Notes: a model not told the origin generated them from the sequence alone. Positions 2,889 to 61,129 are shown, numbered from the stretch's first letter. The stretch: 64,000 bases of DNA from an uncultured bacterium (GCA_963701085.1 OY969561.1:160001-224000); one strand, 5' to 3'. Numbers and translations: made by a program.

Positions 2889-3437
2889 ATGAAAAAATAT
2901 AGTGGAGTATTGTTATTGTTTATTGTTCAAAATATTTATGCAATGGAATTGGATCCCTTTGATAGATGTATCGAATATGATGGTAAATGTCAGTTAGTTG
3001 CCAAGTATTTGTATAAATATCCCAAAGGAAAAAATAAGAACGAAGCATGGCAAATTGAACGTTTTTTGGAAGATACGATATCAGAATGTGTAACTATTTT
3101 GCCATGGCAGGTCAAAAAATATAAAAATATTTTAGCAACTAAGGACGCCGAAGAATATTTGCATGCTATCTATAAAGAGGAACTTTCACAGGATTTAAGG
3201 CAGAAGATTTTTACACAAGCATTATCTTATTCGGCCGAAGACTATTATGCTACTCATAATAGTCTTCAATTTTTAGAGAAATGCCAACCATGGGGTCTTC
3301 CACGTTATAATTCTTCTGCCATAAAAAATTTTTACAAACCATATTTTTTGGCTGAGATACATGAAGAAGATGTTTGTATGCATTTTTCCGGTTTAGATGA
3401 TAATGTGCCAAAGAGTACAAGACTTCAACACAGTTAA
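2889..3437 (+). CDS. Secreted hypothetical protein (signal peptide + Met); may be continuous with the next ORF across a frameshift
   Basis: MKKYSGVLLLFIVQNIYA-MELD; upstream GGAG. Confidence 0.65.
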   Translation: MKKYSGVLLLFIVQNIYAMELDPFDRCIEYDGKCQLVAKYLYKYPKGKNKNEAWQIERFLEDTISECVTILPWQVKKYKNILATKDAEEYLHAIYKEELSQDLRQKIFTQALSYSAEDYYATHNSLQFLEKCQPWGLPRYNSSAIKNFYKPYFLAEIHEEDVCMHFSGLDDNVPKSTRLQHS

Positions 3438-3708
3438 ACTTGTTAATACTGCAGGACAGCTTGTTAACAGATGCTCGGTTGGTTATGACTGTGAGATGAA
3501 ATTAATAAGAAAATTAATTTCTTTTTTGGATAAAAAAGATGAAAGAGTAAATAAGTTTAAAATAATGTTTAATCATTACATTGAACAACTTTCTCAGATA
3601 AATGAGGAAGAAAATGGTGTTAACATGTTTACTTTCCTTCTCAGCCAGTTTAAAGATTTAACAAAGCATATTGTATATCTTTATACAGGAAGAGATCGAT
3701 TAACATAA
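3397..3708 (+). CDS. Hypothetical protein, or frameshifted C-terminus of the previous ORF
   Basis: Overlapping same-strand ORF that fills the gap to the MerR gene. Confidence 0.45.
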   Translation: MIMCQRVQDFNTVKLVNTAGQLVNRCSVGYDCEMKLIRKLISFLDKKDERVNKFKIMFNHYIEQLSQINEEENGVNMFTFLLSQFKDLTKHIVYLYTGRDRLT

Positions 3709-3711
3709 AAA

Positions 3712-4104
3712 TTACAGCATCTCTCGTAATTTACGCAATTTATCCTTTAGATCGATAATTTGCTGCGAGAGGTGTTCAATTTTATCATGTTCAAGAGTAT
3801 TGATGATTGTTTTTTTGGGTTCATCCATGGTTGTTTTTTGTGAAGCAATGATAGATTCACCTTTTGCTGATATCTTTTCTCTCAGTTTCTTTTTTGCTCC
3901 GGAAATGGTGAAGCCTTCTTCGTAAAGAAGTCGTTTGATTAATTCAAATCTTTTAAGATCATTTTCGTCATAGAAGCGTTGGCTGCCTTGAGAGCGCTTT
4001 GTTTTTATACTAAATTCTTTTTCCCAAAAACGTACAACGAAGCGTTCAACTTCAAGTTTAGTTGCGAGTTCACCAATGCGGAATTTTCTTTTTTGCATTT
4101 TCAT
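3712..4104 (-). CDS. MerR-family HTH transcriptional regulator
   Basis: FRIGELA...VVRFWEKEF...QRFYDENDL...LLYEEGFTISGAK. Confidence 0.9.
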   Translation of the reverse strand: MKMQKRKFRIGELATKLEVERFVVRFWEKEFSIKTKRSQGSQRFYDENDLKRFELIKRLLYEEGFTISGAKKKLREKISAKGESIIASQKTTMDEPKKTIINTLEHDKIEHLSQQIIDLKDKLRKLREML

Positions 4105-4224
4105 AATAAATCTTCCTTTTTTTATTTTTTCATAGCTTTTAAGTTGTGGAGTGCGCTAGATGAAAGATCTTTTTCATGGTATCATTAATGTGATAAATTA
4201 GTCAATTTTTATGAAGGTGCCGGT

Positions 4225-5763
4225 ATGAATGTTAAAGACTTGGTTTTGCCAATTGGTTTGGCGATTGTTAGTGTGTTTGCGTTGAATTATTTTTTTCCTG
4301 GTAGCACGTCAAAAGAAGGTGTTGAATCAACGTTTATTGCTCCGCGTGAAAAGAAAGAGTATAAGCCGCTCAATGTAGAAGTTGATTTTTATGATCAAAA
4401 GCGCACTGCTCAGCCGCGCATAACAGATTGTGAAACAGATTGGGCATATATAAGTTTTTCAACTGATGGCGCATCTCTTGAAAGTATAGATTTTAAAAGA
4501 GAATCTAATGGTCATATTAAAACTATTCGTACTATTTTTCCGGTAGCAGATACAGAACGAGAAAATAGATGTCTTTTGGTGGCATTACAGAATGCAACAC
4601 CGTTTTTTTACACCCTATTATCATCAGAAGAAAATGATACTAGTTATGAGTTGATTTATGTTGGAAGTAATGATGAATGTGTGGTGCAAAAAAGGTTCGA
4701 TATTGATAAACATAGACCAAAAATTGATTTATCAATTGAAGTTGCGCCAAAAAATGGTAATAATTCTCACATAGAACCACGCGTTTTCTTTCCCGCACCT
4801 CTCATGCCAGATCTTAAAGAAACAGATGTTATTTCATCAATTGTGATTGATCAGGCTGATCTGTTTGCAAAGAAGCAAGTATCTCAACTTGATGTTCATC
4901 GTGGATGGTTTAATCCGGCGTTATTTGGTGCTGACAATCGTTATTTTATTCATTCATTGATTAATGATGAAAATCATTTTGCTCAACGAGCATATTACAA
5001 GCTTGAAGAGAGAACACATTTATTTTCAATTCTTGAAGGCCCAACGGTTACTGAAAAAACGTCATGGATGTTGTCTTTCTATTTTGGACCTAAGGAACTC
5101 AGTGCATTGGCGGCGGTTGATACACGTTTAGAAAAAACATTGGATTATTCTGGCATGCTTTCATCGCTTGCTAAATTGATGCTCTATCTTTTGAACTGGC
5201 TTTATAAATTCTTCCACAATTATGGTTTAGCGATCATCGCGCTGACATTGCTGATTCAGGTTTGTTTATTGCCGGTTTCTTTGCGCAATAATGAAGAAAA
5301 ATTTAAAAAACAGCAGCAGGAATATCAAAGACAGTTGGCGTTAATTGAACAACGTTTTGCGGGACAACCAGAAAAACTGCTTGCAGAGCGTACTGAATTG
5401 ATTCGGAAAAATGGGTTGCCGGGTATTGGTTGTTTGCTGCCACTATTGATTCAGTTGCCAATTTTTTTTGCATTAAGTCGCGTGCTTTCCAGTTCATTTG
5501 AGTTGTATCAGGCGCCAATGTTATGGATTTCTGATCTTTCTTTGCGTGATCCATATTTTATACTTCCTGTGTTGGTTACGCTTATGATGCTCATGCAAGA
5601 TATGAAAGGTGATGCTCAACAACGTATGAGTAAAATTGCAATGGCATTTGTGTTTGGTGCGATTACATCAAGTTTTGCAGCAGGGCTTACGCTTTATATT
5701 CTTATGGGTAGAGTTTTTGGTTTTATTCAAGCAAAAATTATGACTTATTTTAAATTGGTATAA
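4225..5763 (+). CDS. yidC: Membrane protein insertase YidC
   Basis: YFGPK, NYGLAIIALT, GCLLPLLIQLPIF, WISDLSLRDPYFILP. Confidence 0.93.
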   Translation: MNVKDLVLPIGLAIVSVFALNYFFPGSTSKEGVESTFIAPREKKEYKPLNVEVDFYDQKRTAQPRITDCETDWAYISFSTDGASLESIDFKRESNGHIKTIRTIFPVADTERENRCLLVALQNATPFFYTLLSSEENDTSYELIYVGSNDECVVQKRFDIDKHRPKIDLSIEVAPKNGNNSHIEPRVFFPAPLMPDLKETDVISSIVIDQADLFAKKQVSQLDVHRGWFNPALFGADNRYFIHSLINDENHFAQRAYYKLEERTHLFSILEGPTVTEKTSWMLSFYFGPKELSALAAVDTRLEKTLDYSGMLSSLAKLMLYLLNWLYKFFHNYGLAIIALTLLIQVCLLPVSLRNNEEKFKKQQQEYQRQLALIEQRFAGQPEKLLAERTELIRKNGLPGIGCLLPLLIQLPIFFALSRVLSSSFELYQAPMLWISDLSLRDPYFILPVLVTLMMLMQDMKGDAQQRMSKIAMAFVFGAITSSFAAGLTLYILMGRVFGFIQAKIMTYFKLV

Positions 5764-5765
5764 GT

Positions 5766-6368
5766 ATGTTAGAAGAGTTGCCGACGCTTGCGCATTTGTT
5801 AAAAGTATTGCAGCAGGTTCCTTATCTTGCTTCAAAGAATTTGTATCGTGTAGCAGCACATTTTTTGGAAATGCAGCCACAGCAAATAGCGCAGTTTTGT
5901 GCAGCCTTAGAAGTTGCAAAACAAAGGCTTAAAAAGTGCGAAAGCTGTTTTTATTGGCAAGAGGTATCTACACCTTGTATATTTTGTTCATCATCAAAAC
6001 GTGATCAAACAATGGTGTGTGTTGTTGAGACGTGGCAAGAAATACTTGCGATAGAAAAAACACGTGGATATCTTGGCGTATACCATGTACTTGGTGGTTC
6101 AATCTCTCCGCTTGAAGGTGTTAGCGCTGACGATTTGACGATTGATCAACTGTTGGTGCGTGCTGAAAATGGGATTGTAAAAGAGTTAATTTTGGCGACC
6201 AATCAGACTCCTGAGGGTGAGGCGACTGCTACGTATATTGCGCGTAAATTAAAGGGTAAAAATATTATTATTTCTTGTTTAGCGCGCGGATTGCCGGTTG
6301 GTTCATCACTTGAAGGTATGGACCGCTTAACCGTATTTAAAGCCTTATCAGAGCGGCGTCCATTTTAA
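5766..6368 (+). CDS. recR: Recombination mediator RecR
   Basis: C4 zinc finger, YHVLGGSISPLEG, ATNQTPEGEATA, LARGLPVG. Confidence 0.95.
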   Translation: MLEELPTLAHLLKVLQQVPYLASKNLYRVAAHFLEMQPQQIAQFCAALEVAKQRLKKCESCFYWQEVSTPCIFCSSSKRDQTMVCVVETWQEILAIEKTRGYLGVYHVLGGSISPLEGVSADDLTIDQLLVRAENGIVKELILATNQTPEGEATATYIARKLKGKNIIISCLARGLPVGSSLEGMDRLTVFKALSERRPF

Positions 6369-6387
6369 TAATAAAATTTTTAAAGGT

Positions 6388-7791
6388 ATGTTTATGAAAT
6401 CAGATTTTTTTGGTGGCTTAGCGCCACGCACGGAGCAGCTTTCTGTTTATTCGTTACGAAGAAAAGAGCTTGTTGAATCAATTAAATTAGCGTTTCCGCA
6501 AATTTCGCACGGTATGGTTGTGTTGTTTGCAGCCTTTGAACAAGGTAGTGAGCGGTTTAGACAAGATAAAACATTTTTTTATTATACCGGTGTGAATGAG
6601 CCGGGAACGGCATTGGTGATTGATTTGGCGGGAAAATCAACATTGTATATTCCTAATTGTTTTGAGAAACGCGCGCAATGGATGACGTTGCCAGCAGCTT
6701 TGGTTAACCGTGATGCAAAGGCGCTTGGTGTTGATGCGGTTGAATTGCTGGGTGATGAGTGTGAAACATATGAATTAAATCCCTATTTCTCTGAACATGA
6801 ATATGCGCACATGATTGCACGTATGAAAAATGTTATTGCACGCGGCGGGTCACTGTTTTCAACGGCGCCAAATAATGGCCATGAATATGTAAACACTCGT
6901 TTTACGTTTGATCATTTACAAAAATTTATTTCTGACGTACAGAAGTCTATTGTGGATATTTCATCGATTATAGCGAGTAGCAGGCGACGCAAAGATGTTG
7001 GTGAAATAGAACATGTTTATCGTGCGATAGAGATTACTGAGCTTGCACATGAGTCGGCAGTTCAGGCTATTAAGCATGAGGCTTTGGAGGCGGAAGTCCA
7101 GGCTTCTTTAGAGTATATGATGATAGCATCTCATGCGCGACCAGCATTTCCAAGTATTGTAGCCAGTGGTAAAAATGGTACGGTGCTGCATTATAATCAA
7201 AATAGTGGCACGCTCAAAAATGGTGATCTTTTGGTTGTTGATATTGGGGCTGAGTTTAATAATTATTGTGCCGATTTGACGCGCACTTACCCAGTATCAG
7301 GGGCGTTTACCAAACGCCAGAAGGAATTGTACAACATTGTTCTTGAAACTCAAACTTACATTGCATCGCTTGCAAAACCTGGCATCTGGCTTAAAAATAA
7401 AGATAAAGCTGAACAATCTCTTCATCATTTAGCGGTTAAATTTCTAGCCAAGCGTGGCTATGACAAATATTTTCCGCATGGAATTGGACATTTTCTTGGC
7501 CTTGATGTGCATGATGTTGGTGATTATTCTCTCCCTCTTCAAGAAGGAGATGTTATTACGATTGAGCCAGGGATTTATATTGCTGCAGAAAATATTGGAA
7601 TTCGTATTGAAGACAATTACTGGATTACCAAAGAAGGTGCTATTTGTTTGAGTGAGCATCTGCCTAAAGAAGCAGATGATATTGAGGCTGTTGTGCAGCA
7701 AGCTCTCCGTGGTGAAACTGATGATGAAGATGATGACGAGTATGAAGATGATGAAGATTTTGATGACGAAGAAGATGATGTGTTTAATTAA
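6388..7791 (+). CDS. pepP: Xaa-Pro aminopeptidase (M24B) with acidic tail
   Basis: LHYN, DIGAE, ADLTRT, HGIGHFLGLDVHD, TIEPGIY, GIRIED. Confidence 0.9.
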   Translation: MFMKSDFFGGLAPRTEQLSVYSLRRKELVESIKLAFPQISHGMVVLFAAFEQGSERFRQDKTFFYYTGVNEPGTALVIDLAGKSTLYIPNCFEKRAQWMTLPAALVNRDAKALGVDAVELLGDECETYELNPYFSEHEYAHMIARMKNVIARGGSLFSTAPNNGHEYVNTRFTFDHLQKFISDVQKSIVDISSIIASSRRRKDVGEIEHVYRAIEITELAHESAVQAIKHEALEAEVQASLEYMMIASHARPAFPSIVASGKNGTVLHYNQNSGTLKNGDLLVVDIGAEFNNYCADLTRTYPVSGAFTKRQKELYNIVLETQTYIASLAKPGIWLKNKDKAEQSLHHLAVKFLAKRGYDKYFPHGIGHFLGLDVHDVGDYSLPLQEGDVITIEPGIYIAAENIGIRIEDNYWITKEGAICLSEHLPKEADDIEAVVQQALRGETDDEDDDEYEDDEDFDDEEDDVFN

Positions 7792-7806
7792 AGATTAGGA
7801 CGTCCT

Positions 7807-9369: not shown

Positions 9370-9419
9370 GTGGTATGTTTTTAATCGTGGTAAAAACAAG
9401 GTTAAATAGCGTATTTTTA

Positions 9420-10226: not shown

Positions 10227-10616
10227 ATGAAGACAAATATACAAAAAAGGCTGAATATTGGTTTATGTATTGCAATAATTATGATTCTTGCTGGTTCGAC
10301 AGTGTCATACGGAATGGATATGAAGCTTTGGTCAGAAAGAGATAAAAAGATAGCTGCATTAGGAGTTATTGACCTTGAAATGTTTAGTAGATGGGTTGAA
10401 TTGCCACATTTATATGCAGGCACATCGGAGAATAATCCCCTTTTATGGATTGTACAGAAAGCTAGTGATAAACAACTAGATCTTTTTGTGCGTATGAGTA
10501 AGGAGGGGCGGAATTTCAAGATCATCGGATATGGTGACGATCTTGATGCCTTCCAAAAGTTACCTAAACATGTAAAATCATATCTATCACACGTTTTTGG
10601 CTACACTATGCAATAG
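10227..10616 (+). CDS. Secreted hypothetical protein (signal peptide + Met)
   Basis: AAGGAG SD; MKTN...LAGSTVSYG-MDMK. Confidence 0.7.
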   Translation: MKTNIQKRLNIGLCIAIIMILAGSTVSYGMDMKLWSERDKKIAALGVIDLEMFSRWVELPHLYAGTSENNPLLWIVQKASDKQLDLFVRMSKEGRNFKIIGYGDDLDAFQKLPKHVKSYLSHVFGYTMQ

Positions 10617-44077: not shown

Positions 44078-44259
44078 ACGAACTCCTTTTTTTAACTTTA
44101 ATCTAGTTTTTAATACCAGTTAATGGAGTTGAAGATCAAGAATTTGGTGAAATAGTTTTAAAAAAAGCTTCCTAGTATATTTATTTAGTTTTAGTATAAA
44201 CTTTCACTATTGGTTATAAAACTGCCATTAATAGCATGGGAATGATAAAAATGAGAGTG

Positions 44260-45147
44260 ATGGAAAAAAAGTATGAATTTATTGGGTTGATTTTTTTTGT
44301 GGTATTTTCAGTTGCTGCAAAAGAGAGTGAAAAGTGGGTTGAACATAAGGTAGAGATAGTCAAAGAAGGCAATTTTGCATTGCCACTTTCACAACAACCA
44401 GCGCCGTTGTTCAGTTTTGGGCAAAATCTTGTTGATAAACATGATTTGCTGGCATTTATATATCCATCGCAATTAAAAGGATCAAAATCAAATTTTATTG
44501 AAGTAGTGCCGTCTATTATTTATGGACTGACCGATAGAATGTCTTTATTTGTAGAATTACCAATTGTAGCAAAATTTAAGCATGAAGATACAAAATCGCA
44601 TGGTGTAGGTGATTTGGTTGTTCAATTGGAACAGATTATGTATGCACAAGAAACACCAACTTCAGTAAACGAAGTTACTGTTGTGGGTAATATAACGCTC
44701 CCGACCGGTTCAGCTACTAAAAATCCACCAACGGGATTAGGATCGCCATCGTTTTTTTTAGGAGTTACCTTGAGTCGTAGCAAGACAGATTGGTATTATT
44801 TTACGTCATTGGGAGGACATATAACGACTTTTCATAAACATAATAAGCCTGGTAATGAATTTTTATATCAATTTGGTGTTGGTAGGAATATTGCGTATAA
44901 GACAGATGGGTGGATTTTAAACTGGATGGTAGAATTAGATGGGATATATACCCATCGTGATATTGTATCAGAGGTAATTGATTGTAATAGTGGTGGGAAT
45001 ACACTCACATTAGGACCTTCTCTTTTTTTCTCCACGCGTCGGTTTGAAATAGATGCTGGTATTGCAGCGGTTGTTGCGCAACATTTATTTGGTAGTCAAA
45101 CTAAGGAACGCTATCTTGCTGGCTTCTATGCTGGTTGGAAGTTTTGA
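44260..45147 (+). CDS. Putative outer-membrane beta-barrel/transporter, paralog 1
   Basis: Signal peptide, amphipathic strands, LPTG, C-terminal YAGWKF. Confidence 0.7.
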   Translation: MEKKYEFIGLIFFVVFSVAAKESEKWVEHKVEIVKEGNFALPLSQQPAPLFSFGQNLVDKHDLLAFIYPSQLKGSKSNFIEVVPSIIYGLTDRMSLFVELPIVAKFKHEDTKSHGVGDLVVQLEQIMYAQETPTSVNEVTVVGNITLPTGSATKNPPTGLGSPSFFLGVTLSRSKTDWYYFTSLGGHITTFHKHNKPGNEFLYQFGVGRNIAYKTDGWILNWMVELDGIYTHRDIVSEVIDCNSGGNTLTLGPSLFFSTRRFEIDAGIAAVVAQHLFGSQTKERYLAGFYAGWKF

Positions 45148-45173
45148 GCCCCAATTACACGAGGATAAATAAG

Positions 45174-46070
45174 ATGAGTAATGGTGGTAGTTTGTATGTG
45201 TATGTTGTTCTGATTCTTTTTGCTGTGTGTTCTGCTACTGCAAAAGATAGTGAAAAATGGGTTAAAGAAAAAATAGAGCAGGTGCATGTTGGTAATTTTG
45301 CACTGCCTACATCTCAGCAGCCAGGACCATTAGTTGGTTTTGGTCAAAATATTATTGATAAAGGTGATTTGCAGCTGTTTGCGTATGGTGATCAATTAAA
45401 AGGAGCGCGGAAAAGTTTTGCAGAAGTTGCTCCTTCTTTATTGTATGGAATTACTGATAAATTTTCTTTGTTTATAGAGCAATCAGTTGCCGTAAAGTTT
45501 AAAAATGAGCAGTTTACATCGCATGGCTTGGAGGATTTGCTGGTACAACTTGAAGGTCTTATTTATGCACAAGAAACAACCGTAACAGTTAATGAAATTA
45601 CATTAGTTGGTAATATGACTTTTCCCACCGGTTCAGCTACCAAACAACCACCAACTGGTTTTGGTGCGCCAACATTTTTTTTAGGGTTTACGGTGAGTCG
45701 TACTAAACTAGATTGGTATTATTTTAGTGCCATGGGGGGGATAATAACAACATCACATCATAAGACTAAATTTGGTAAAGAATTTTTGTATCAGTTTGGC
45801 GTGAGTAAAAATATAGCATACAAAGCAGATAGATGGCTTTTGAATTGGATGGTTGAACTGGATGGTTTGTATAGGCAGCACAATAGAATACGCGGCATAG
45901 TTGATCGCAGTAGTGGTGGCAATACCATTGTTTTGGGACCTTCATTGTGGTTTTCTACGCAACGCTTTATTTTGCAAGGCGGGATATCGGCTGTTATTGC
46001 GGATCATCCATTTGGTACGCAGACTAAAAATAATTATTTTGCAGCAGCAAATGTTGGGTGGAAATTTTAA
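45174..46070 (+). CDS. Putative outer-membrane beta-barrel/transporter, paralog 2
   Basis: Colinear with paralog 1; ends NVGWKF. Confidence 0.7.
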   Translation: MSNGGSLYVYVVLILFAVCSATAKDSEKWVKEKIEQVHVGNFALPTSQQPGPLVGFGQNIIDKGDLQLFAYGDQLKGARKSFAEVAPSLLYGITDKFSLFIEQSVAVKFKNEQFTSHGLEDLLVQLEGLIYAQETTVTVNEITLVGNMTFPTGSATKQPPTGFGAPTFFLGFTVSRTKLDWYYFSAMGGIITTSHHKTKFGKEFLYQFGVSKNIAYKADRWLLNWMVELDGLYRQHNRIRGIVDRSSGGNTIVLGPSLWFSTQRFILQGGISAVIADHPFGTQTKNNYFAAANVGWKF

Positions 46071-46165: not shown

Positions 46166-46621
46166 TTATTTTTTCATGAATTGTTTATAGTAAGCCATTT
46201 TGTCTTCTTGAGTATTGTTTTGTAGTGGATATGTTTTCATTTCGCTTTTTTTATCATCCCAACTGTTTTCATTATCCCAATTAATTGGGATTGGACACCA
46301 TTTCTGATAGGCTTCTTTTCTGCCTTTTTGAGTATTATTATACGTTGGAGAAGTGATAATGTAGGTTCTGTGCTTGAAATTGTTTATTGTCGAGAGCCTT
46401 GTGTGCATGCAGAGTATAGAACTGTTAAGGGTGAGTAATGTTACAACATAGTATGATTTACTATAGTTATTTATTTTAATTTTTTTTCTTGCGCTCGTCC
46501 TGAACTTGTTGAAGGATTTCTTCGAGCGCTCGAGGATATCCTTCAACAAGTTCAGGACGAGCGCATTAAGAAATTTAATATTTTTCGACTTAAGAGATAG
46601 CTTCTTATTTTTGTGCTTCAC
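46166..46621 (-). CDS. Hypothetical protein whose N-terminus is read through a palindromic element (start uncertain)
   Basis: Element-derived ALVLNLLKDILERSKKSFNKFRTSA, then a hydrophobic stretch ending SILC-M. Confidence 0.45.
   Translation of the reverse strand: MKHKNKKLSLKSKNIKFLNALVLNLLKDILERSKKSFNKFRTSARKKIKINNYSKSYYVVTLLTLNSSILCMHTRLSTINNFKHRTYIITSPTYNNTQKGRKEAYQKWCPIPINWDNENSWDDKKSEMKTYPLQNNTQEDKMAYYKQFMKK
46491..46564. repeat. 74-bp palindromic element
   Basis: 27-bp perfect inverted arms gcgctcgtcctgaacttgttgaaggat around central tcgagcgctcga. Confidence 0.95.
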
Positions 46622-47524: not shown

Positions 47525-47985
47525 AAAAACCTTCCGTATGGACGCTGTTTGTAGATGGTGCATCGCGCAATAATCCGGGACCTTCTGGTGCCGGTATTTA
47601 TATTGAAAAAGATAATATATTGGAGATTAAAGAAGGTTATTATTTGGGTATAAAGACCAATAATCAGGCTGAATATTTGGCATTGATTTTTGGTCTTTTT
47701 ATTGTGCAAGAACATGTGCATAGCGGTGACACGGTGCGAATTATTTCTGATTCACAACTGCTTGTTCGTCAAGTGATGGGTGTGTATAAAGTTAGACAGC
47801 CACATTTGCAGCCCTTGCATGCGCTTTGTAAAATCATCATGCATAAGTTAGATGCTACTATTAATCATGTTTTGCGTGATGAAAATATGCAAGCAGATGC
47901 AATGGCTAATTATGGTGTTGATCGTAAAACAGTTCCCCCTAAACATTATATTGCATTATTGAAGCAGCATGACATTCTTCTCTAG
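47521..47985 (+). CDS. rnhA: Ribonuclease HI
   Basis: DGASRNNPG, TNNQAEY, DSQL, N..AD.MAN. Confidence 0.92.
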   Translation: MKKPSVWTLFVDGASRNNPGPSGAGIYIEKDNILEIKEGYYLGIKTNNQAEYLALIFGLFIVQEHVHSGDTVRIISDSQLLVRQVMGVYKVRQPHLQPLHALCKIIMHKLDATINHVLRDENMQADAMANYGVDRKTVPPKHYIALLKQHDILL

Positions 47986-49435
47986 ATTAGAACCTATTTT
48001 TAAACTAATTTTTTCCCGCGCTCGTCCTGAGCCTGTCGAAGGATATCCTCGAGCGCTCGAAGAAAACCCTTCAACAAGTTCAGGGCGAGCGCGGGAAGGA
48101 AATTTAGTATTTAGATATAGGATTTTATTTATCTTAATTTTGTTGGGAAACATATCTCTTGATGCCGCTCGCTGGCCATGGATAGTAACGTCTACAACGA
48201 GTCCATTGTCGGCAAAAAAATCTGTGGTGCGCTCTCGTGCAACGCTCAACAAAGCACGAACATCTGATATGTTGCATCATCTATTTCCCGGTGATGTTAT
48301 TTTTCAAGAATGTGTTCAACAAGATTCATTGGATGATATATGCGCACATGCACGCAAAAAACGGCACACTATTGTTCGTGTATTACTTGCTGAATGTGAT
48401 CTTGTTTCATCAGCCCAGTGGCATTTTACATCCCCCGAGGGTTTTACGGTACAGGCAATTAATAATGGTGATGATAAACCCAAAAAAATTCTTAAAGTTT
48501 CCAGTTTTGCTGTTGCGGTAAAATGTGGCTCTTTGTTTTGTAATGGTAAGCGATTAAAGCACGGAGTACGATTACGACCAGTAGGCGGACATGGAGAATT
48601 TAATGGAACTGCTTACGATGGTGATTTCTGTATAATTCAGCATAAAGATAATTTTTTATGTATAAATCAGGTTGAATTGGAAGATTATATTACTGCCGTT
48701 TTACGCACAGAAAGTTGGCCGGGATGGCCACTTGAAGTGAACAAAGTTTTTGCAATTGCTTGCCGTAGTTATGGTGCCTATAAAATACGAGAAGCAAAAC
48801 GCAGTGGACGACCGTATCATGTAAAAAATAGTAATGCGCATCAAACATATCAGGGTAGGCACGATATGCCGATACTTAAGGCTGCGGTTGAGCAAACAAG
48901 GGGTATAGTACTGGGTTTTGGGGGCGCACCTATTTTGGCAATGTTTGACTGCTGTTGTGGGGGGGTTATTCCAGCCCACATTGCTGATTTTGATTTTGCA
49001 AAAGTTCCTTATTTGGCTCGTACGTATGCATGTACACACTGTAAGGAGTCTTCACTTTATGTATGGAACGTATCGTATGAACTGGCAGCTTTTGAAGCAC
49101 TTTTAGCTCATTATAAGCACGAAATTACATGGTTGCATGATATTCATATTGTAAAAAAAGATAAGGCGGGCCTTGTTGCTGAAGTAAAACTCAAAGGGCC
49201 AAAAAAACATACAATTGTCTCCGGCAAGAAGCTCTATTCATTGCTTAAAGAAGTTAAATCCTTTCATTTTGATGTTCAAAAAAAGGCAGGAAAAATAGTT
49301 TTTACTGGTCGTGGATTTGGTCATCATCTTGGTTTATGCCAATGGGGTGCGCGTCAGATGGTCCGCGATGGGTGGGATTATAAGTCTATTCTGCGCTTTT
49401 ATTACCCCGGTGCTTATTTTATGCGTCTTACATAA
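47969..49435 (+). CDS. SpoIID/LytB-domain peptidoglycan hydrolase; N-terminus contains a palindromic element
   Basis: LEDYITAVL..E, HQTYQG, GRGFGHHLGLCQWGA, ILRFYYPG. Confidence 0.9.
   Translation: MTFFSRLEPIFKLIFSRARPEPVEGYPRALEENPSTSSGRAREGNLVFRYRILFILILLGNISLDAARWPWIVTSTTSPLSAKKSVVRSRATLNKARTSDMLHHLFPGDVIFQECVQQDSLDDICAHARKKRHTIVRVLLAECDLVSSAQWHFTSPEGFTVQAINNGDDKPKKILKVSSFAVAVKCGSLFCNGKRLKHGVRLRPVGGHGEFNGTAYDGDFCIIQHKDNFLCINQVELEDYITAVLRTESWPGWPLEVNKVFAIACRSYGAYKIREAKRSGRPYHVKNSNAHQTYQGRHDMPILKAAVEQTRGIVLGFGGAPILAMFDCCCGGVIPAHIADFDFAKVPYLARTYACTHCKESSLYVWNVSYELAAFEALLAHYKHEITWLHDIHIVKKDKAGLVAEVKLKGPKKHTIVSGKKLYSLLKEVKSFHFDVQKKAGKIVFTGRGFGHHLGLCQWGARQMVRDGWDYKSILRFYYPGAYFMRLT
48018..48092. 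repeat. 75-bp palindromic element, in frame in the SpoIID ORF
   Basis: Encodes RARPEPVEGYPRALEENPSTSSGRA; arms extend with ttccc/gggaa. Confidence 0.95.
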
Positions 49436-49532: not shown

Positions 49533-51781
49533 ATGGCTTTTTTTTATGTAATGGTGATGACGTTTGTAATGATTTTACCGTCAGTAAGTTGTGCTGTTGA
49601 ATCAGTAAAAATAGTTCCAACAGGTTTAGAGCGAGTTTTTGCAATGAGCGGGGAAGTTGCTGTTAAACAACAGGAGATGTTAGCAAAAGCTACCGCTGAA
49701 ACTAAAACGATTGTAGATGGCGCAACAAAAAAGATTGATTTTGTTCGCGGTCTGTTATTTGTTGATGTAACAACGCAACAAGAAGCTGCAAAAATAATGA
49801 GAACAATTATTAAGCAGAATTCCATTGCTGCTCAAGCGCAACAGAAATTAAAAAGGTTACGCGAGCGATTAGCACAGGAAAATGAAGCTGATGATGCGCA
49901 GGATAGTTATGTGAGTAGATTGGTATTGGCGGTAAAAGATGTGGGGCATGATTTGGTTGCTCCATTTAGGTATACAAAGAATGAAAAAAATATAGCGCAG
50001 CAGATTATCTTTGGGTTGATGCAGCAACAAGCAAAAATCATGGAAGACTACCAAGCTTTACCGCTTTTTAGCGTTAGTAACAAAACTCAGCTCAGAAAAT
50101 GTTATGAAACAGCCATTGCGCAGCTTGATGATGAAATATATCGGCAGCAGTGTATTACTGGTGAAAAAAAGAGTTTTAAAAAACAGGTGGCTTTGTTAGC
50201 TGGTGGCGCAGCGGTAGCAGCTGCAGCGGCTTTGCTTGCGCATAAATTTTTGCTGCCAGAATTTTTGGGTGCATCAACACCTGAAAATGGGATAGTGATA
50301 AATAATAATAATGAATTAAAAGATGTTGAGCAAAATAAATTTGAGCAAATCAGCGAACTATCTTCTGTTGGATCATCTATCGTTGAAGAAGAAGTTGTTG
50401 TGCAAGATGAACAAACCCGCGCTCGTCCTGAGCCTGTCGAAGGATATCCCCGAGCGCTCGAAGAAAACCCTTCAACAAGTTCAGGGCGAGCGCAGCGAGA
50501 ATTGAACGCAGTGTTTACTACTGAGCCTGTCGAAGTATCAGGGCGAGCGCAGGAAGAAATTAGTTTAGAGATAGATGCTAATACAGAATTAAATTTGGAT
50601 CAGCCAAATGTGGTAGATCAAGCAAAAGAAGAATTAGATGGAACAGAAGTTTCTCAAAAAGATCAAGATTCTCAAGAAATTGTAATACCTAATCAACCTG
50701 TGGAAAAGGGATATTTGGATATTGCTAAGGATACTATCCAGTATTATTTGGGGTTGGGAGATGTGCCTGAGGAGGTAACGGAAAATAAACCATCAGTTAC
50801 GCAAGTAGTGATGGATGAAACCCCAGGGCTTGATGTAGAAAAAACAGCAATTGAAATAGGACAGTGCCCACTGATTTAATTGAAAATGAATCAGTAATTG
50901 GATCTCCCCGCGCTCGTCCTGAGCCTGTCGAAGGATATCCACGAGCGCTCGAAGAAAACCCTTCAACAAGTTCAGGGCGAGCGCAGCGAGAATTGAACGC
51001 AGTGTTTACTACTGAGCCTGTCGAAGTATCAGGGCGAGCGCAGGAAGAAATTAGTTCAGAAGTAGGCCCTCTATTAGTAGACGAACAACCTGACGAAGAT
51101 ATTGTAATGCCTGAAGTAGTTGTACAACAAGAAGAACAACCTGAAAGTCAGCCAGAGCAACGAGAACAAGAAGAGTCTTTAAACGAGGACGCATTTAATT
51201 CAGCAATAGATGCAGACGGGAATCCGATCATACTTATGCCAACTATGCCTGCTGAACAGGATAATAAAGTGGACGATGTGCAACAAGCTGATGTCCCAAG
51301 TATAGCAATGTCTCTTAGGCAAGAGTTTGCCGCGGAGCAGGAAAAGTTAGACAATTTGAAGGCTGATTATGGGACGGGTTGGTGGACGAGTGTTACATTA
51401 GAAGAAAAAGAAGAGCAAGAAAAAAAAGTAGCACAAATAATTGAAAAAATAGTTGAGGAAGATGCTGCTTGGAATTGTGTGGTGAGTCAGCAACAAGATT
51501 TAAGAAATGCAGATATTATCCACAAGGCAGAGCTGTATCGCGTTGAGATGGATAGGTTAGAAGCAGAAGAAAAAATAGCGGAAAAAGAATATAATGCGGC
51601 GGTTGAAGCGCGAGATAAAAAATTAGAAAGTTCGTTCTTTCAAGCAAAGCAATTTTTGGGAATGCTTTTTGACAGAGGGGATTTGGAATATGAAGATTTA
51701 CAGCATAAAGTACAAATATCAGAATCTCGTTTGTGCGGCAAGAAGGCATTAAAAGATTGGCACATCAAAAATAAACCGTAA
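49533..51781 (+). CDS. Large secreted/membrane acidic coiled-coil protein split by an apparent frameshift near 50860; contains two element-derived 49-aa repeats
   Basis: ORFs 49533-50879 and 50864-51781 overlap and share composition and a repeat. Confidence 0.65.
50416..50565. repeat. 150-bp direct repeat copy 1 (75-bp palindrome at 50419-50493 plus tactactgagcctgtcgaagta module and a half arm)
   Basis: One mismatch versus 50907-51056. Confidence 0.95.
50907..51056. repeat. 150-bp direct repeat copy 2 (75-bp palindrome at 50910-50984)
   Basis: One mismatch versus 50416-50565. Confidence 0.95.
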
Positions 51782-51827
51782 AAACATGCATAACTTACTA
51801 TAGTTATTCGCTTCATGTATTTTTCCT

Positions 51828-51901
51828 GCGCTCGCCCTGAACCTGTTGAAGGGTTTCCCCGAGCGCTCGAAGATATCCTTCAACAAGTTCAGGACGAGCG
51901 C
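51828..51901. repeat. 74-bp palindromic element between convergent genes
   Basis: gcgctcgccctgaacctgttgaagg...ccttcaacaagttcaggacgagcgc. Confidence 0.95.
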
Positions 51902-51956
51902 GAGAAAAGATATAAATTTGGCAAGGCCATTTTTTTTGTTGCTATTTATCACTGTG

Positions 51957-54984: not shown

Positions 54985-54987
54985 GAA

Positions 54988-56382: not shown

Positions 56383-56483
56383 AAAATTCTCCTCTGAACT
56401 CTTTTTTGCAAAGGTTCACGTTTTGATTACAATCAATCATCTCGATTGTATCAGATGCTGTAAAAATTGTAAAAGAGGGGGGG

Positions 56484-57527
56484 TTATAGGATTGCGCATG
56501 TGTTAGGATACTTAAACTCTATTTCTTTTTTTTCTTCTTTTTGTATCTGAGCATATGTTTTCGCACCAAGTTCTTTTAAAATAGCTACCTTTTTCAAAGA
56601 ACGGTCGGCTTTTTTATTATCTCCATTCATTCGGTAGAGAAGAACGGTATCCTCACAAATGTCCAGAGCTGTTATCCGAGGTCTAAGCGGTTTGTTGAGC
56701 TGGAACAGTTTATTTTTGATTAACATTTGTGGCAGTTCCTTTGTGTTGTTATTGAGTGCTGCCATAAAGAAGAAAAAAGAATTTTTTTGAATTATTTTTT
56801 TTGTTGTTTTTTTTGCCAAAAGATATGTAAAGCAATTTTGTGCATTGTATCTTAAGGATTCTGCTATTATTACTTCTTGTCCTTGATAAGTAGGTTTTTT
56901 TTGAGCATAAAGTTGTTGAAGATAATCATCATTATCTGACCATGCGGCGATGAGATAAAAAAGAAATGAAAAGTCACGATTATTATTAATAGGTAAGCAT
57001 GTTGCTATCTTATCTGGAACAGTGATTGTATCATAGCAATGTTTCCAGTCTAGATCTTTGTAGAGATCGCAATTGTTAATGAGCAACTGTGCTATGTTAG
57101 CATTATTATTATGAATGGCAATCATGGTGAAAGGTATATCGATATATTCATCTTTATCTGAGTCCATTAAACTTATCCCACTATTGTTTGTTATAGGTAA
57201 TAGCCATTTTACCGCTTCAAAATCATTTTTAGCGGTAAGGATAAATAGAATAGTTGCTTTATCGTTAGATTTAAGGATTCCTTTTTTTTTAACATATGTA
57301 TCATATTCTCTTTCCACACTATCGGGCATGAATTTCCACTGATCGTTTTTCTGAGCCCAATTTTTACACACGAGTCTTACACTGAGATCTTTTTCCGGTA
57401 AGTTTTTGAAGATATGTTGACGTATATCAGGATGTTCTAAATCCTTGTAAGTTATCATGCCAAAGGTGGGGGTATGGGAGAATAGCGTTAAAAATAATAT
57501 TGCTATGGTGAAGCGTGGTGTATGCAT
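56484..57527 (-). CDS. Secreted F-box-like/ankyrin-like protein ending in CaaX (CAIL)
   Basis: TFG-M; PDIRQHIFKNL...RLVCKNW; AIHNNNANIAQLLI; TALD; CAIL*. Confidence 0.8.
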   Translation of the reverse strand: MHTPRFTIAILFLTLFSHTPTFGMITYKDLEHPDIRQHIFKNLPEKDLSVRLVCKNWAQKNDQWKFMPDSVEREYDTYVKKKGILKSNDKATILFILTAKNDFEAVKWLLPITNNSGISLMDSDKDEYIDIPFTMIAIHNNNANIAQLLINNCDLYKDLDWKHCYDTITVPDKIATCLPINNNRDFSFLFYLIAAWSDNDDYLQQLYAQKKPTYQGQEVIIAESLRYNAQNCFTYLLAKKTTKKIIQKNSFFFFMAALNNNTKELPQMLIKNKLFQLNKPLRPRITALDICEDTVLLYRMNGDNKKADRSLKKVAILKELGAKTYAQIQKEEKKEIEFKYPNTCAIL

Positions 57528-57664
57528 AAAAAAGACCTCATTAAGTTTATTTTTTACGTGAGTCTGTAGTTTTTTTAATGCTTCTATTACTTTTCTACAA
57601 TTACAATTATCTTTTATGATTCTACCAGATGTTATAAAAATTGTAAAAGAGGGGGGCTGAAGTT

Positions 57665-58558
57665 TTAGAGAATGGTACACCATGAGGAATAGTCATTGTG
57701 CATGTTATTATTCGTAGGATGATGATCAATCATTTTATTATGTCGTATTAGTTCCATAATCATTGTTCGGTTATGTTCCTTAGCAAGGTTAAAGAACTTG
57801 CCGCCATAGTAGTATATTATGTTTTTTATTTGATCATTTTTTAAGAAAGTTTTAAAACAATTTAGTGCATTATGGGCTATAGACATTATTATTAATCGTG
57901 TTGTTCCATCGGTATTTGGCATATTTTGCAAACAAAGAAGTTGTTTAAGCTCATGAGAGTTATCTGTCCAAATGGTTAAAAAATAGGCTAAGATTGAAAA
58001 ATCATGTGGGTGGGTTTGGTCGAAATATTTTTGTAGATGATTTGGTAGTGTTATATTCTTGTAATATGTCTTCCAATTATTGTCTGGATAATTTTTCTTG
58101 TCTGTTTCAATTAAAAAACGAGCAACTTCAGGATTTTTATTATGTATGGCAAACATAACGGCATGTATATTATTATCGATCTCATCGATTGTAATATCGA
58201 TATCACTATGGGTTTTAGTATTATTTTTTATCCATTGTACGCTTGCCAAATCATTCATTGATGTAAAATCGAATAAAATATAGGTTTTATCCCAAGAAGT
58301 TAAATGTCTTCCATTTTTCGTATATCTATTATGTTCTTTTTCTATAACGTCAGGCATAAATTTCCAAATATTTCCTTTGCAGGCCCAGTCTTTGCATACC
58401 AATCTAAAATCGTCCTGGTCTTCTTTTGATAAATGTTCGTAAATATTTTGGCGTATATCAGGATCTGCTAAGTTCTTGTAAGTTATCATGCCAAAAATAG
58501 ATAGGTGAGAGAATAATGCCAAACATGATACTGCCATGGAGAAACGTGATGTGTTCAT
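57665..58558 (-). CDS. Secreted F-box-like/ankyrin-like protein ending in CaaX (CTIL)
   Basis: IFG-M; PDIRQNIYEHL...FRLVCKDW; AVMFAIHNKNPEVARFLI; CTIL*. Confidence 0.8.
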   Translation of the reverse strand: MNTSRFSMAVSCLALFSHLSIFGMITYKNLADPDIRQNIYEHLSKEDQDDFRLVCKDWACKGNIWKFMPDVIEKEHNRYTKNGRHLTSWDKTYILFDFTSMNDLASVQWIKNNTKTHSDIDITIDEIDNNIHAVMFAIHNKNPEVARFLIETDKKNYPDNNWKTYYKNITLPNHLQKYFDQTHPHDFSILAYFLTIWTDNSHELKQLLCLQNMPNTDGTTRLIIMSIAHNALNCFKTFLKNDQIKNIIYYYGGKFFNLAKEHNRTMIMELIRHNKMIDHHPTNNNMHNDYSSWCTIL

Positions 58559-58574
58559 AAAAATCTCATAAAGT

Positions 58575-59057
58575 TTAGCGTGTTGGGATGTCTAAAAATT
58601 GATAATTATGTTTTGTGATAGTGAGAAACTTTTTAATGCCATCAAAAGGAATAGCAAGCGTTGCAGTATTGACTAATGGATGGCATTGCAATGTTTTATC
58701 TTTAAGATTGATATCAAAAATAACCGTCACTGCATGAGCTGTATCATTAATAAGACCAAGCACGGTGACTGATCCTGGTGTAACTCCAAGATATTTTGTA
58801 AGCCGTTCTGGTGATGCAAAACTGAGATTTGATACATCCAGGATACATTTTAATTGTTTGAGATCTACTTGTTTTTCTTTGCCAACAACCACGAGGAAAT
58901 GTTTGTCTGTTTTTTTGTCATATAAAAAAAGATTTTTTATCGAGGTGCCAGGCATTTTGGGGCACACTATGTCAGCTTGATTGCAGGTAAATGCTGCCGG
59001 ATGATCAAAACGTTCGTAGGGGATGTTGTTGGTATCAAGGAGTGTGTAGATGTTCAT
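58575..59057 (-). CDS. YbaK/ProX-family tRNA-editing deacylase
   Basis: KNLFL, LSFAS, LGVTPGSVT, HPLVNTAT. Confidence 0.92.
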   Translation of the reverse strand: MNIYTLLDTNNIPYERFDHPAAFTCNQADIVCPKMPGTSIKNLFLYDKKTDKHFLVVVGKEKQVDLKQLKCILDVSNLSFASPERLTKYLGVTPGSVTVLGLINDTAHAVTVIFDINLKDKTLQCHPLVNTATLAIPFDGIKKFLTITKHNYQFLDIPTR

Positions 59058-59059
59058 AT

Positions 59060-59482
59060 TTATTTGTTGTTATCAAAAAATTTCCATTTATGTGCATTTT
59101 CTACTGCTTCTTCTAAGCAATCCATCTCCCATCTGTTATAAGCACCCACGTTTATTAATGCATGAGTTACTTGTTCTTTAGAAATTTTCTTATCCTGAGC
59201 CTTATCAGGGAAATTAGCTTCTTGCAGTAAATAGTCATCAATTATTTCGCAATTATGAGAATCTATTTTTTTACCTTTCACAAAAGCCATCGCTGATTCT
59301 ATCGGTGTTGGATTACAATAGAAATAAATTTGAGATACAACTGTTACATCGTGCGGAGTAGTACTCATTGCATGATATCTAGGATGATACATGCTTAGTC
59401 CCCCGTATTTTTTATTATCCATGGAATTAAGAGAAAAATTGCTTGCGATGGATAGTGCGACGATTATTTGCAATGCTTTCAT
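59060..59482 (-). CDS. Secreted hypothetical protein, paralog A
   Basis: FSLNS-M; Y.GL..YH..Y and L.EAV..A shared with B and C. Confidence 0.75.
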   Translation of the reverse strand: MKALQIIVALSIASNFSLNSMDNKKYGGLSMYHPRYHAMSTTPHDVTVVSQIYFYCNPTPIESAMAFVKGKKIDSHNCEIIDDYLLQEANFPDKAQDKKISKEQVTHALINVGAYNRWEMDCLEEAVENAHKWKFFDNNK

Positions 59483-59564
59483 GAAGTGACTCCTTTATAA
59501 GTGTTAAAAATTTTTATTATTAAGAGCATATCCTTAAAGTCGAAAAATATTAAATTTTTTTTTC

Positions 59565-59704
59565 GCGCTCGTCAGCTACACCCCATCTTCAGTTCCTTGC
59601 GATGGGGACCCCGATTGGAACGACGTGTCCTTCGAAGCCTTGGCGAAGGAGGAAGTGCAAATTGGGGAATAAAGGATATCTTCGAGCGCTCGAAGGTATC
59701 CTTT
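59565..59704. repeat. Nested composite repeat: palindrome remnant > double-hairpin module > 30-bp hairpin
   Basis: gcgctcgtc end; module matching 40506-40570; insert 59624-59653; central aaaggatatcttcgagcgctcgaaggtatccttt. Confidence 0.85.
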
Positions 59705-59723
59705 AATAACATTATTGATAGAT

Positions 59724-60491
59724 TTATTTGTTGTTTTCTTCAGACATGTGACATTTTGAGTTGATATCGATTTTGCGATATAATGCATCTTTATATGTAC
59801 TCAAATCATATCTGCTACGATGTGAATTTATGTGAGAATTTGGGTTATAGAATGCATCTCTATTATTAGTAATAGGCTGACAATCATTTGCATGTTGTAC
59901 AGCTTCTCGTAGAAGTATTAATTCTTGATTATAATTAGGATTACAGAGATTCTTAAACAGCATGCTATAGCGATTGGGTGTAGATAATGTATTTTTCAGA
60001 GCAGTGTCTACTTGTTGTTGGACAGTAGAATCTTGAAGATTACCAGATAAACGAGCTTGCTGTATTTGTGGAATAACAATTTGAAGAAGTGATTTTCGCA
60101 AATTTAAATCTTTTTTTCTAAAAATATCGCTTTGAAGAAGTGATTTTCGCAAATTTAAATCTTTTTTTCTAAAAATATCGCTCGTAGAATTTAATTCGCT
60201 CGTGGTAGCTTCTAGATCTTTGGTATAGAATTTTATTTGTTCTTCTACTGATTCTTGTGGACGTCTATTCAGTAATAAATATGCATTAAGTATGTCACAA
60301 CTAGCATCTTTTTTATTAGATTTACAATATGAATAAATAGTAGATCCGCATGTTAACTCATTTTCAGAGCAGAAAGAATTGTGATATGTAGGATGGTAAA
60401 ATTTCAATCCCACGTATTCTTCATTTTCCATTGAATTAAGAGAAAAACTGCTTGCGATGCATAGTGCAACAATTACGTGTAATGTTTTCAT
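59724..60491 (-). CDS. Secreted hypothetical protein, paralog B, with an internal 17-aa duplication
   Basis: FSLNS-M; ILNAYLLLNRRPQESVE shared with C. Confidence 0.8.
   Translation of the reverse strand: MKTLHVIVALCIASSFSLNSMENEEYVGLKFYHPTYHNSFCSENELTCGSTIYSYCKSNKKDASCDILNAYLLLNRRPQESVEEQIKFYTKDLEATTSELNSTSDIFRKKDLNLRKSLLQSDIFRKKDLNLRKSLLQIVIPQIQQARLSGNLQDSTVQQQVDTALKNTLSTPNRYSMLFKNLCNPNYNQELILLREAVQHANDCQPITNNRDAFYNPNSHINSHRSRYDLSTYKDALYRKIDINSKCHMSEENNK
60081..60182. repeat. Perfect 51-bp tandem duplication
   Basis: Encodes SDIFRKKDLNLRKSLLQ twice. Confidence 0.95.
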
Positions 60492-60523
60492 TAAGAATTC
60501 CTTTAATAATATTATTGATAAAT

Positions 60524-61129
60524 TTATTTGGTGCTATCAAGAAAATCACATTGATTTGCGGATTCTACAGCTTCTTTTAGATAGGCTAGTTCATGCCGAT
60601 AATTATCTGATGAGGAGATATTTTTTAATGCCATACCTACTTGTTCTTGAATACTGCGATCTTGAGGTTTACCAGAAAGATTAGCTTGTTGTATTTGTGG
60701 GATAATACGTTCAAGAAATTTTTGTCGAGTTCCTAATGTGTTTTTTTTAAAAATCTCAATGGTAGAATTTAATTGTTCAGTAGTATTGGTGAGGTCTTTT
60801 TTATAAAATTCTAGCTGTTGTTCTACTGATTCTTGTGGACGTCTGTTAAGCAATAAATAGGCATTAAGTATTCTGCAATTGTAAGGATCTTTTGTATTTT
60901 TTGTCCATGCATCCCTCCATGATGATGTACAATAAGGATAAATATCACTGCCTTTTACAGAGGAATATGCGCTTATATCAATACGAGAGGCATACCGAGA
61001 ATGATACCATTCTAGTCCCGAATAATCTTCATTTTTATTTCTGTTTCTAACGTGCTGCATAGGCTGCATAGAATGAAGAGAAAAACTGTTTGCGATGGAT
61101 AGTGCGGCGATTATTTGCAATGCTTTCAT
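60524..61129 (-). CDS. Secreted hypothetical protein, paralog C
   Basis: AAGGAG SD; MKALQIIAALSIANSFSLHS-M. Confidence 0.8.
   Translation of the reverse strand: MKALQIIAALSIANSFSLHSMQPMQHVRNRNKNEDYSGLEWYHSRYASRIDISAYSSVKGSDIYPYCTSSWRDAWTKNTKDPYNCRILNAYLLLNRRPQESVEQQLEFYKKDLTNTTEQLNSTIEIFKKNTLGTRQKFLERIIPQIQQANLSGKPQDRSIQEQVGMALKNISSSDNYRHELAYLKEAVESANQCDFLDSTK

Follow-up and report, generated by a model that had tools for sequence, protein, structure and literature searches.

A methionine at the predicted signal-peptide cleavage site of orphan and eukaryote-like exported proteins in an uncultured bacterium

The window analyzed here is a 64-kb stretch of DNA from an uncultured bacterium (bases 160001-224000 of a single 1,198,634-bp contig with 37% G+C; GCA_963701085.1), in which a ribosomal-protein operon lies amid many small genes without a known family. 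A first-pass annotation had singled out about 13 window proteins with a methionine (Met) directly after a signal-peptide-like stretch, and had proposed that cleavage exposes a host-like N-terminus. Followed through the genome, the pattern is far beyond chance: 215 proteins carry [A/G/S/C/T]-Met 3-9 residues past the hydrophobic core. In this genome the Met terminus marks exported proteins that are orphans or eukaryote-like (ankyrin, WD40, F-box, C2H2 zinc finger), and not resident envelope or fibre proteins. Judging from the sequences, it is very probable that these are real Sec signal peptides, that the cleavage site lies exactly before a Met under selection, and that, in this genus, the arrangement is a specific mark of exported proteins that are orphans or eukaryote-like.

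The methionine and the predicted cleavage site

Open reading frames (ORFs) were called with a crude codon-usage score of our own, which gave 1165 over 1.2 Mb. Signal peptides were sought with a detector that requires an n-region of net positive charge followed by nine uncharged residues averaging at least 1.9 in hydropathy, every start codon in the first 80 codons being tried. It is permissive, membrane proteins included, and 548 of the 1165 ORFs pass. Counted from the end of the hydrophobic core, Met accounts for 8.0, 13.7 and 10.9% of residues at offsets +5, +6 and +7; at the other offsets its share is about 1.3-4.4%. The signal peptides of the 215 Met proteins are 15-30 residues long; by BLAST the mature parts make up 146 families, of which 123 are singletons. 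About a dozen true paralogues that lack Lys/Arg or have Thr at -1 were missed by the detector, and the true total is somewhat higher; false positives in turn inflate the count of 215 slightly.

Signal peptidase I follows the -3,-1 rule of von Heijne, under which the +1 residue is normally variable. In the 215 proteins position -3 is mostly Leu (48), Thr (33), Ile (33), Ser (27), Ala (26) or Val (20), position -2 often His (34), Phe (30) or Tyr (20), and position -1 Ala (75), Gly (65), Ser (41), Cys (18) or Thr (16), while Glu (98), Asp (21), Leu (18), Asn (15) and Gln (11) lead at +2. With -1 left unconstrained, Ala, Gly or Ser precedes Met in 168 of 221 proteins, compared with a background of 20% and, where any of seven other residues stands at those offsets, with 16-38%; in this set -3 is Leu, Ile, Thr, Ala, Ser or Val in 188 of 221. 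The predicted site thus falls exactly before the Met. When sites were chosen by the (-3,-1) rule only, the candidate sites of one protein splitting one vote, Met took 118.5 of 493 weighted votes at +1 (24%, background 2.4%). With our own detector the excess seen in the window is therefore borne out genome-wide as a 10-fold enrichment, every other residue reaching at most 1.25-fold. The same scripts applied to the first 200 kb of E. coli K-12, a small sample with 31 signal-peptide-like N-termini in 160 genes, gave Ala as the commonest +1 residue and Met at 0.9% (0.3-fold, 1/29), the sole Met case being the membrane protein NhaA.

These N-termini have the features of Sec signal peptides, namely a charged n-region and a hydrophobic core (in the 215 proteins and in 12/12 in the window), the -3/-1 residues and a signal peptidase I gene in the genome. 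This is a single S26 gene (genome 661135-661956, minus strand; a 340-aa frame), in which an insertion divides the Pfam match in two. A special signal peptidase was considered as the cause of the pattern and rejected: this genome has only the form with the insertion and a relative of the same genus (G007, see below) only the regular form, relatives carrying one or both, yet the two genomes are both about 10-fold enriched. Usage at -1 differs weakly between the Met and non-Met classes (chi-square p 0.035, with 54 uncertain non-Met sites), a difference on which we do not build.

Other signal types fit less well. A Tat signal is not indicated, as RR occurs in the first 12 residues of only 1/215 precursors. 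LspA and Lgt are present, with lipobox matches numbering 17 at most. A lipobox variant with Met is unsupported, given that +1 is Met and -2 mostly His, Phe or Tyr, and Cys is not enriched at +1 of the rule-based sites (1.09-fold). We know of no chemistry by which Met would be lipidated. Type IV pilin-like signals were likewise set aside, since here the hydrophobic segment precedes the cut; the two pseudopilins that were caught are false positives. As to machinery beyond Sec, the genome, rated 92.6% complete, has no match to FHIPEP, VirB4 or TssC (type III, IV and VI systems); two secretins make up all the specialised export machinery that was found.

Between unrelated families the signal peptides show little likeness (0-5 identities in 16 residues for nearly all pairs), and only a few tandem families share one. 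This dissimilarity indicates that no cassette was copied around, and spread of a signal-peptide cassette by recombination was rejected on this ground. Four genes (genome 351700-352191, 827190-827720, 910062-910529 and 910742-911221) do have near-identical signal peptides (13-15 of the last 16 residues) on mature parts unmatched by BLAST at E 0.01, which suggests a conserved leader on a fast-varying body.

Carriers, conservation and the question of a second start

Among 143 family representatives of the Met proteins, 102 have no Pfam match at E 1e-4. Those with a match include 7 ankyrin and 7 WD40/beta-propeller proteins, and further a C2H2 zinc finger, a phospholipase D, a lysophospholipase, a methyltransferase, a HIT/CwfJ protein and a thymidylate kinase. 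The association with eukaryote-like domains, including the placement of all F-box-like window proteins in the Met set, extends to the genome. An Ank_2 search found 45 gene places genome-wide, and Met follows the signal peptide in 27 of the roughly 30 ankyrin genes that have one (19 by script, 8 by eye; 3 are without). The same holds for all 9 signal-peptide-bearing WD40 genes (7 found by script, 2 by eye) and for 4/4 F-box Pfam matches.

The signal-peptide set without Met comprises 198 proteins, and a Pfam scan covered 92 of the 183 referable ones. In this scanned part we found a PBP transpeptidase, MreC, ZnuA, FKBP, a Cache sensor, collagen-like proteins, S74 'endosialidase chaperone' fibres and glycosyltransferases, together with several cytoplasmic enzymes that represent false signal peptides. 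The housekeeping proteins of the envelope that were seen lack the Met.

Some further genes of these families are recorded here. Large exported proteins with a collagen triple helix or a C-terminal S74 domain (phage tail-fibre-like) lie at genome 249304-252369, 67680-72472, 372141-373652, 385362-387980 and other places; ordinary non-Met sites are found throughout the S74 family and in all of these. Short ankyrin ORFs without a signal peptide (60-310 aa) cluster at genome about 513500-520800, nearly all on the minus strand, and may represent one large broken ankyrin gene. A C2H2 protein of 240 aa (genome 355745-356467, minus strand) combines a signal peptide and Met-Glu with several eukaryote-type zinc fingers (zf-H2C2_2, E 4e-35).

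Conservation points to the Met as a selected position. In the tandem family at window positions 35081-38845, 17 sequences, drawn from metagenomes as well as from this genome and its relatives, share only 16 invariant columns (identity to the query 37-68%, mean column identity 42%). The +1 Met and the -3 Leu are among these columns, and the residues that follow the Met are variable. The F-box-like family of 41398-42237 keeps [A/T] before M-[D/E] in 6/7 members; the seventh lacks the hydrophobic leader and has Pro at the aligned position. A hydrophobic C-terminal tail is present in all members of that family, which fits a tail anchor and is odd for Sec export. The F-box/ankyrin family keeps Gly before Met in 4/4, and two metagenome homologues of the protein at 57665-58558, at 62% and 42% identity, read VFG-MT and IFG-MI across the site. 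Over 258 homologue pairs in all, identity at the +1 Met is 119/138 (0.86) between paralogues, with 0.30-0.70 in the flanks, and 42/66 (0.64) between this and other genomes, with 0.25-0.54 in the flanks, counts in which the local aligner may slightly favour Met-Met matches.

These figures bear on the scenario in which the signal peptide arose upstream of the old start codon of a cytoplasmic, perhaps eukaryote-derived protein, the Met being kept through youth or a mild preference of the peptidase. That most carriers are either orphans specific to the lineage or repeat proteins of eukaryote-like type would suit such a relic, as would tandem families that keep the signal peptide while the mature part diverges. 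A thymidylate kinase pair illustrates the point in both directions. The two genes (genome 723623-724174 and 725039-725773, both on the plus strand) are 62% identical; one product is cytoplasmic and starts directly with the kinase core, and the other, apparently an exported nucleotide kinase, has a signal peptide ending in SHA followed by Met-Glu. The Met of this second product is near where the cytoplasmic one begins, but three residues further from the core and in new sequence, which indicates that it is not simply the old initiator. At 37-68% identity to the query no N-terminal position is conserved better than the Met, which does not vary at all in the tandem family; a neutral leftover would have decayed, and nothing in a relic origin would place the -3/-1 cleavage residues exactly against the Met. 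The residue after true starts is moreover rich in Lys, Ile, Asn, Ser and Ala, with Glu in 35/617, compared with Glu in 98/215 after the +1 Met. We consider an origin as a relic rather improbable, and the alignments argue that the Met is kept by selection on the protein residue.

The first-pass annotation had itself raised a second in-frame start, by which the ATG would yield a form without signal peptide that stays in the bacterial cytoplasm beside the exported form. The position of a conserved ATG exactly at the mature N-terminus of about 200 genes is what such a mechanism would produce, and initiation without a Shine-Dalgarno (SD) sequence occurs in bacteria. SD-like 4-mers at -20 to -4, however, precede 126/215 signal-peptide starts (59%) and 265/617 first starts of other genes, but only 11/215 of the +1 ATGs (5%), which is below the frequency for random in-frame ATGs (644/5412, 11.9%). 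In the nucleotide profile, purines are enriched 7-13 bases ahead of the signal-peptide start, where G reaches up to 39%; no comparable purine-rich or -10-like signal lies before the +1 ATG, where G is 7-24%. Nor are the alternative start codons enriched at +1: TTG makes up 20/108 Leu codons and GTG 10/54 Val codons, matching their genome usage of 19.4% and 18.3%. As the residue after the Met is also unlike that after true starts, and a cytoplasmic copy of an F-box, ankyrin or WD40 protein has no evident use, a second start is disfavoured and, in our estimate, very improbable.

A related concern is that the Met is the true start and the upstream 'signal peptide' an untranslated open frame. Open upstream frames with many hydrophobic and Lys codons do turn up at times in AT-rich genomes, and some of our calls are such errors, for instance an M17 aminopeptidase and RpiB. 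As a general explanation this artefact is already close to refuted. The GC-rich codons for Ala, Gly and Ser are far above background at -1, a ribosome-binding signal precedes the upstream start, homologues in other genomes conserve the signal-peptide region at the protein level, and E. coli gives no excess in the same pipeline.

Relatives and the listed window proteins

The genome is well supported as a member of the Babeliales/Dependentiae phylum. The relatives sampled up to phylum level belong to one order only, with genomes of 0.8-1.8 Mb, and the source label of one homologue of a window protein reads 'Candidatus Babeliales bacterium'. Traits of the phylum are also matched (signal peptides on about half of the ORFs, ankyrin proteins with signal peptides, secretins, no type III, IV or VI markers), which supports this assignment. 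A search of genome contigs for related loci returned only 2, with uninformative titles.

The phylum-wide picture is based on four partial genomes (400 kb of each relative), namely G006 and G007 from the genus of the present genome (G000), G040 from another genus of the same family and G057 from another family. Within the genus +1 Met is enriched 7.0-fold in G006 (37 Met proteins, +2 favouring Asp) and 9.4-fold in G007 (64 Met proteins, +2 favouring Glu). In G040 the enrichment is 4.9-fold (22 Met proteins) and in G057 3.5-fold (24 Met proteins, five of them from one MYA.. family), +2 being mixed in both. The series of 10-, 9.4- and 7.0-fold followed by 4.9- and 3.5-fold indicates that the feature is strongest in this genus and fades with distance.

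The window proteins with a +1 Met are collected in Table 1. Translations and our gene call uphold 12 of the 13 originally noticed, and these 12 do form six families, in agreement with the claim of at least six unrelated ones; each N-terminus has a start codon, at least one Lys/Arg/His, an uncharged hydrophobic core and L/I/T/S-x-A/G/S followed by ATG. The thirteenth (46621, SILC-MH) was rejected, for its Met lies about 70 residues into an ORF (46166-46621) that fails the coding test and has no start codon before the hydrophobic stretch; this doubtful ORF overlaps a palindromic repeat element at 46476-46578. An F-box identity of the tandem family at 35081-38845 was also dropped: 0/17 members match Pfam F-box at E up to 1, and an Atlas F-box lead is weak (score 0.86, under Atlas's own 0.9 line).

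Table 1. Window proteins with a methionine directly after the predicted signal peptide (positions within the window).
Protein	Position	Strand	Predicted signal peptide ends	+1 Met codon	First two residues after predicted cut	Remarks
Orphan secreted protein	2874..3437	+	NIYA	2943-2945	ME	Start 2874 or 2889; no Pfam family
Orphan secreted protein	10227..10616	+	VSYG	10314-10316	MD	No Pfam family
First of four tandem paralogues	35081..36022	+	SLHG	35168-35170	MD	
Tandem paralogue	36025..36942	+	LLHG	36094-36096	ML	
Tandem paralogue	36945..37859	+	LLHG	37014-37016	ML	
Tandem paralogue	37862..38845	+	LLHG	37928-37930	ML	
F-box-like protein, C-terminal hydrophobic tail	41398..42237	-	QTHA	42171-42169	MD	F-box E 0.002, below cut-off
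F-box-like + ankyrin protein	56484..57527	-	PTFG	57458-57456	MI	Ank_2 1.9e-7, F-box 0.003
Ankyrin paralogue of 56484..57527 protein	57665..58558	-	SIFG	58489-58487	MI	
Orphan, first of three paralogues	59060..59482	-	SLNS	59422-59420	MD	
Orphan paralogue	59724..60491	-	SLNS	60431-60429	ME	
Orphan paralogue	60524..61129	-	SLHS	61069-61067	MQ	

Other window proteins have a signal peptide and no +1 Met: three small ones at 205-1219, two at 44236-46070 and a 2217-aa protein starting at 62653. The statement that other exported proteins of the window lack the Met holds for these small proteins and the 2217-aa protein; the beta-barrel identity given to some was not confirmed for any.

Repeats are frequent around these genes. 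The 5' ends of the three paralogues at 59060-61129 form a DNA repeat (D2), and the gene at 59724-60491 (minus strand) contains two tandem 51-nt copies at 60072-60173, 94% identical, that duplicate a 17-residue stretch, with a third, diverged copy in the next paralogue. The palindromic repeat is G+C-rich, about 90-100 nt long and found in intergenic or 5' regions; besides the copy already named it occurs at 48007-48106, 50416-50502, 50907-50993 and 51819-51916, and partially at 59672-59709. Translated in frame, it yields a peptide that recurs where ORFs 47969 (the SpoIID ORF, 47969-49435), 50864 and 51815 appear to begin.

Possible roles and comparison with known systems

We suggest that these proteins carry ordinary Sec-type signal peptides, which the single signal peptidase I most likely cuts between Ala, Gly or Ser and the conserved Met, a site deduced from sequence. 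The exported protein would then start with Met, mostly with Met-Glu or Met-Asp in this genus, and selection would act on the Met residue of the mature protein and not on ATG as a start codon. Onward export past the periplasm may follow a secretin-based (type II-like) route. The retained Met with its bulky or acidic neighbor could not be trimmed by Met aminopeptidase and would resemble a native eukaryotic N-terminus of the NatB/NatC type, not a neo-terminus made by a protease. Taken as a whole, with a Sec cut before a selected Met, a class mark and host-side use, this is our best explanation, and we put it forward tentatively; that the Met terminus is read on the host side appears possible but doubtful.

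Small residues at +2 permit removal of Met by Met aminopeptidase, and larger ones retain it. Small residues (Gly, Ala, Ser, Thr, Cys, Pro, Val) follow the Met in 19/215 proteins compared with 37.6% expected (19/96 compared with 42% when Asp and Glu are excluded), and Asp, Glu, Asn or Gln in 145/215, so that by sequence these are N-termini that would retain Met in eukaryotes. The residue after Met is always bulky in the window, as first claimed; genome-wide this is a strong tendency only. Small residues are also scarce in the relatives (5/37 in G006, 4/64 in G007, 6/22 in G040, 4/24 in G057). We know of no Met aminopeptidase in the periplasm. The depletion at +2 would then suggest that the proteins reach a compartment with the enzyme, such as the host cytosol, or that +2 belongs to a recognition motif, or that a second cleavage site is avoided.

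Placement of the site, class specificity and avoidance of small residues at +2 thus agree with the idea of a host-like terminus, but a number of points weigh against it. Under the classical N-end rule Met is no more stabilising than Ala, Ser, Thr, Gly or Val, so that degron avoidance alone fails to explain the choice of Met. The N-terminal acetyltransferases NatB and NatC act mainly co-translationally, on nascent chains. The residues after Met in G040 and G057 include Phe, Tyr and Leu, which unacetylated would be degrons in yeast and mammals. In the 400 kb of G057 the signal peptide of an ankyrin gene is followed by Met in just about 6-7 of some 31 cases, and inside one paralogue family of that genome Met, Val and Ile interchange at +1; even within the genus, the mark is found on only 4/8 ankyrin genes (3/4 in G006, 1/4 in G007, 400 kb each). 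The mark is lineage-specific and no general requirement. Finally, gene call and signal-peptide detector are crude, and at least 8/143 family representatives are false (internal membrane helices, pseudopilins, cytoplasmic enzymes).

An alternative is that the mark is read by the bacterium itself, Met and an acidic or bulky residue exposed by cleavage sending proteins to the secretin system or to vesicles, as opposed to retention, in the manner of the lipoprotein +2 rule or the surface-lipoprotein export signal of Bacteroidetes. About 146 unrelated families share nothing else and resident envelope proteins lack the Met, both of which would suit an export tag. The favoured +2 residue differs by lineage (Glu in the present genome and G007, Asp in G006), as expected if tag and receptor co-evolve. 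With secretins as the sole specialised machinery found, a generic mark would also be useful (compare passages in PMC4378268 and PMC4776705). Yet the same secretion genes are reported phylum-wide while most ankyrin proteins with a signal peptide in G057 are without Met, which is unconserved among paralogues there, and the surface fibre proteins are without it although they too must pass the outer membrane. The analysis identified no receptor for such a tag, and type II substrates elsewhere are recognised folded. Such a tag seems unlikely to us, if still worth considering, and lineage specificity weakens this reading and the host-side one alike.

On a bolder reading, a lineage of obligate intracellular parasites with only Sec and a secretin system might use a one-residue code, in which Met (with Glu or Asp) singles out about 200 unrelated proteins that are to be delivered to the host cell or to survive there, and is read by a dedicated reader; we regard this scenario as unlikely. 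The phylum lacks type III, IV and VI systems through which its hundreds of eukaryote-like proteins could be delivered to their hosts. Whatever its reader, the Met rule offers a simple sequence criterion for listing candidate effectors in these genomes, and Met at +1 with Glu or Asp at +2 is a concrete, mutable handle on sorting or stability. It would also be a case in which the residue after the signal-peptidase site, usually deemed free, is under strong selection, and it carries a warning for annotation, where the in-frame ATG after a signal peptide should not be taken as the start codon.

The secretomes described for the phylum resemble the present one. In the main texts, Babela massiliensis (PMC4378268) and Chromulinavorax destructans (PMC6561590) are reported with small genomes and with type II or Sec as the sole export route, 44% of coding sequences having signal peptides in the latter (PMC6561590), and the ankyrin proteins with signal peptides given in these texts amount to 78% and 79/126; the 548 signal-peptide-like ORFs and two secretins found here are comparable. 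The passages on Dependentiae in PMC11495043 mention few predicted extracellular proteins. Neither 'methionine' nor 'cleavage' occurs in the main texts of PMC4378268 and PMC6561590 (supplements lying outside this scope), and the main text of PMC4776705 has 0 occurrences of 'methionine' and of 'signal'. Full-text literature searches, subscription journals apart, turned up genome papers on the phylum and nothing on which residue follows the signal peptide; we found no report of the Met mark, which seems to be unreported.

Compared with standard Sec signal peptides, those described here are alike in n-region, core, small -1 residue, small or aliphatic -3 residue, length and the presence of one S26 peptidase gene, and differ in that Met occupies +1 at about a quarter of rule-based sites and is conserved, at odds with its rarity there in E. 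coli. The bacterial lipoprotein signal offers a further parallel. Its lipobox has an invariant +1 Cys preceded by L-[AST]-[GAS], with a +2 residue that sorts; in both cases an invariant +1 residue defines an exported class, -1 is Ala, Gly or Ser, Leu is the commonest -3 residue and the neighboring residue may sort. Here, however, the +1 residue is Met and not Cys, and -2 is His, Phe or Tyr and not small.

A likeness in logic only exists with the PEXEL motif of Plasmodium and the RxLR motif of oomycetes, where a short motif near the mature N-terminus is shared by unrelated host-directed families and absent from housekeeping secreted proteins. The processed PEXEL terminus has an acidic or polar second residue and is acetylated. 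No motif of this type (RxLxE/Q/D or RxLR, expected 15-30 residues behind the signal peptide) was noticed in tallies of positions +2 to +8, no dedicated scan being made. The present case differs in that it concerns a bacterium and a lone Met, in this genus together with Glu or Asp, at the signal-peptidase site itself, with no second protease implied. Should the one-residue code prove true, it would be the bacterial counterpart of the PEXEL and RxLR host-targeting signals of eukaryotic parasites.

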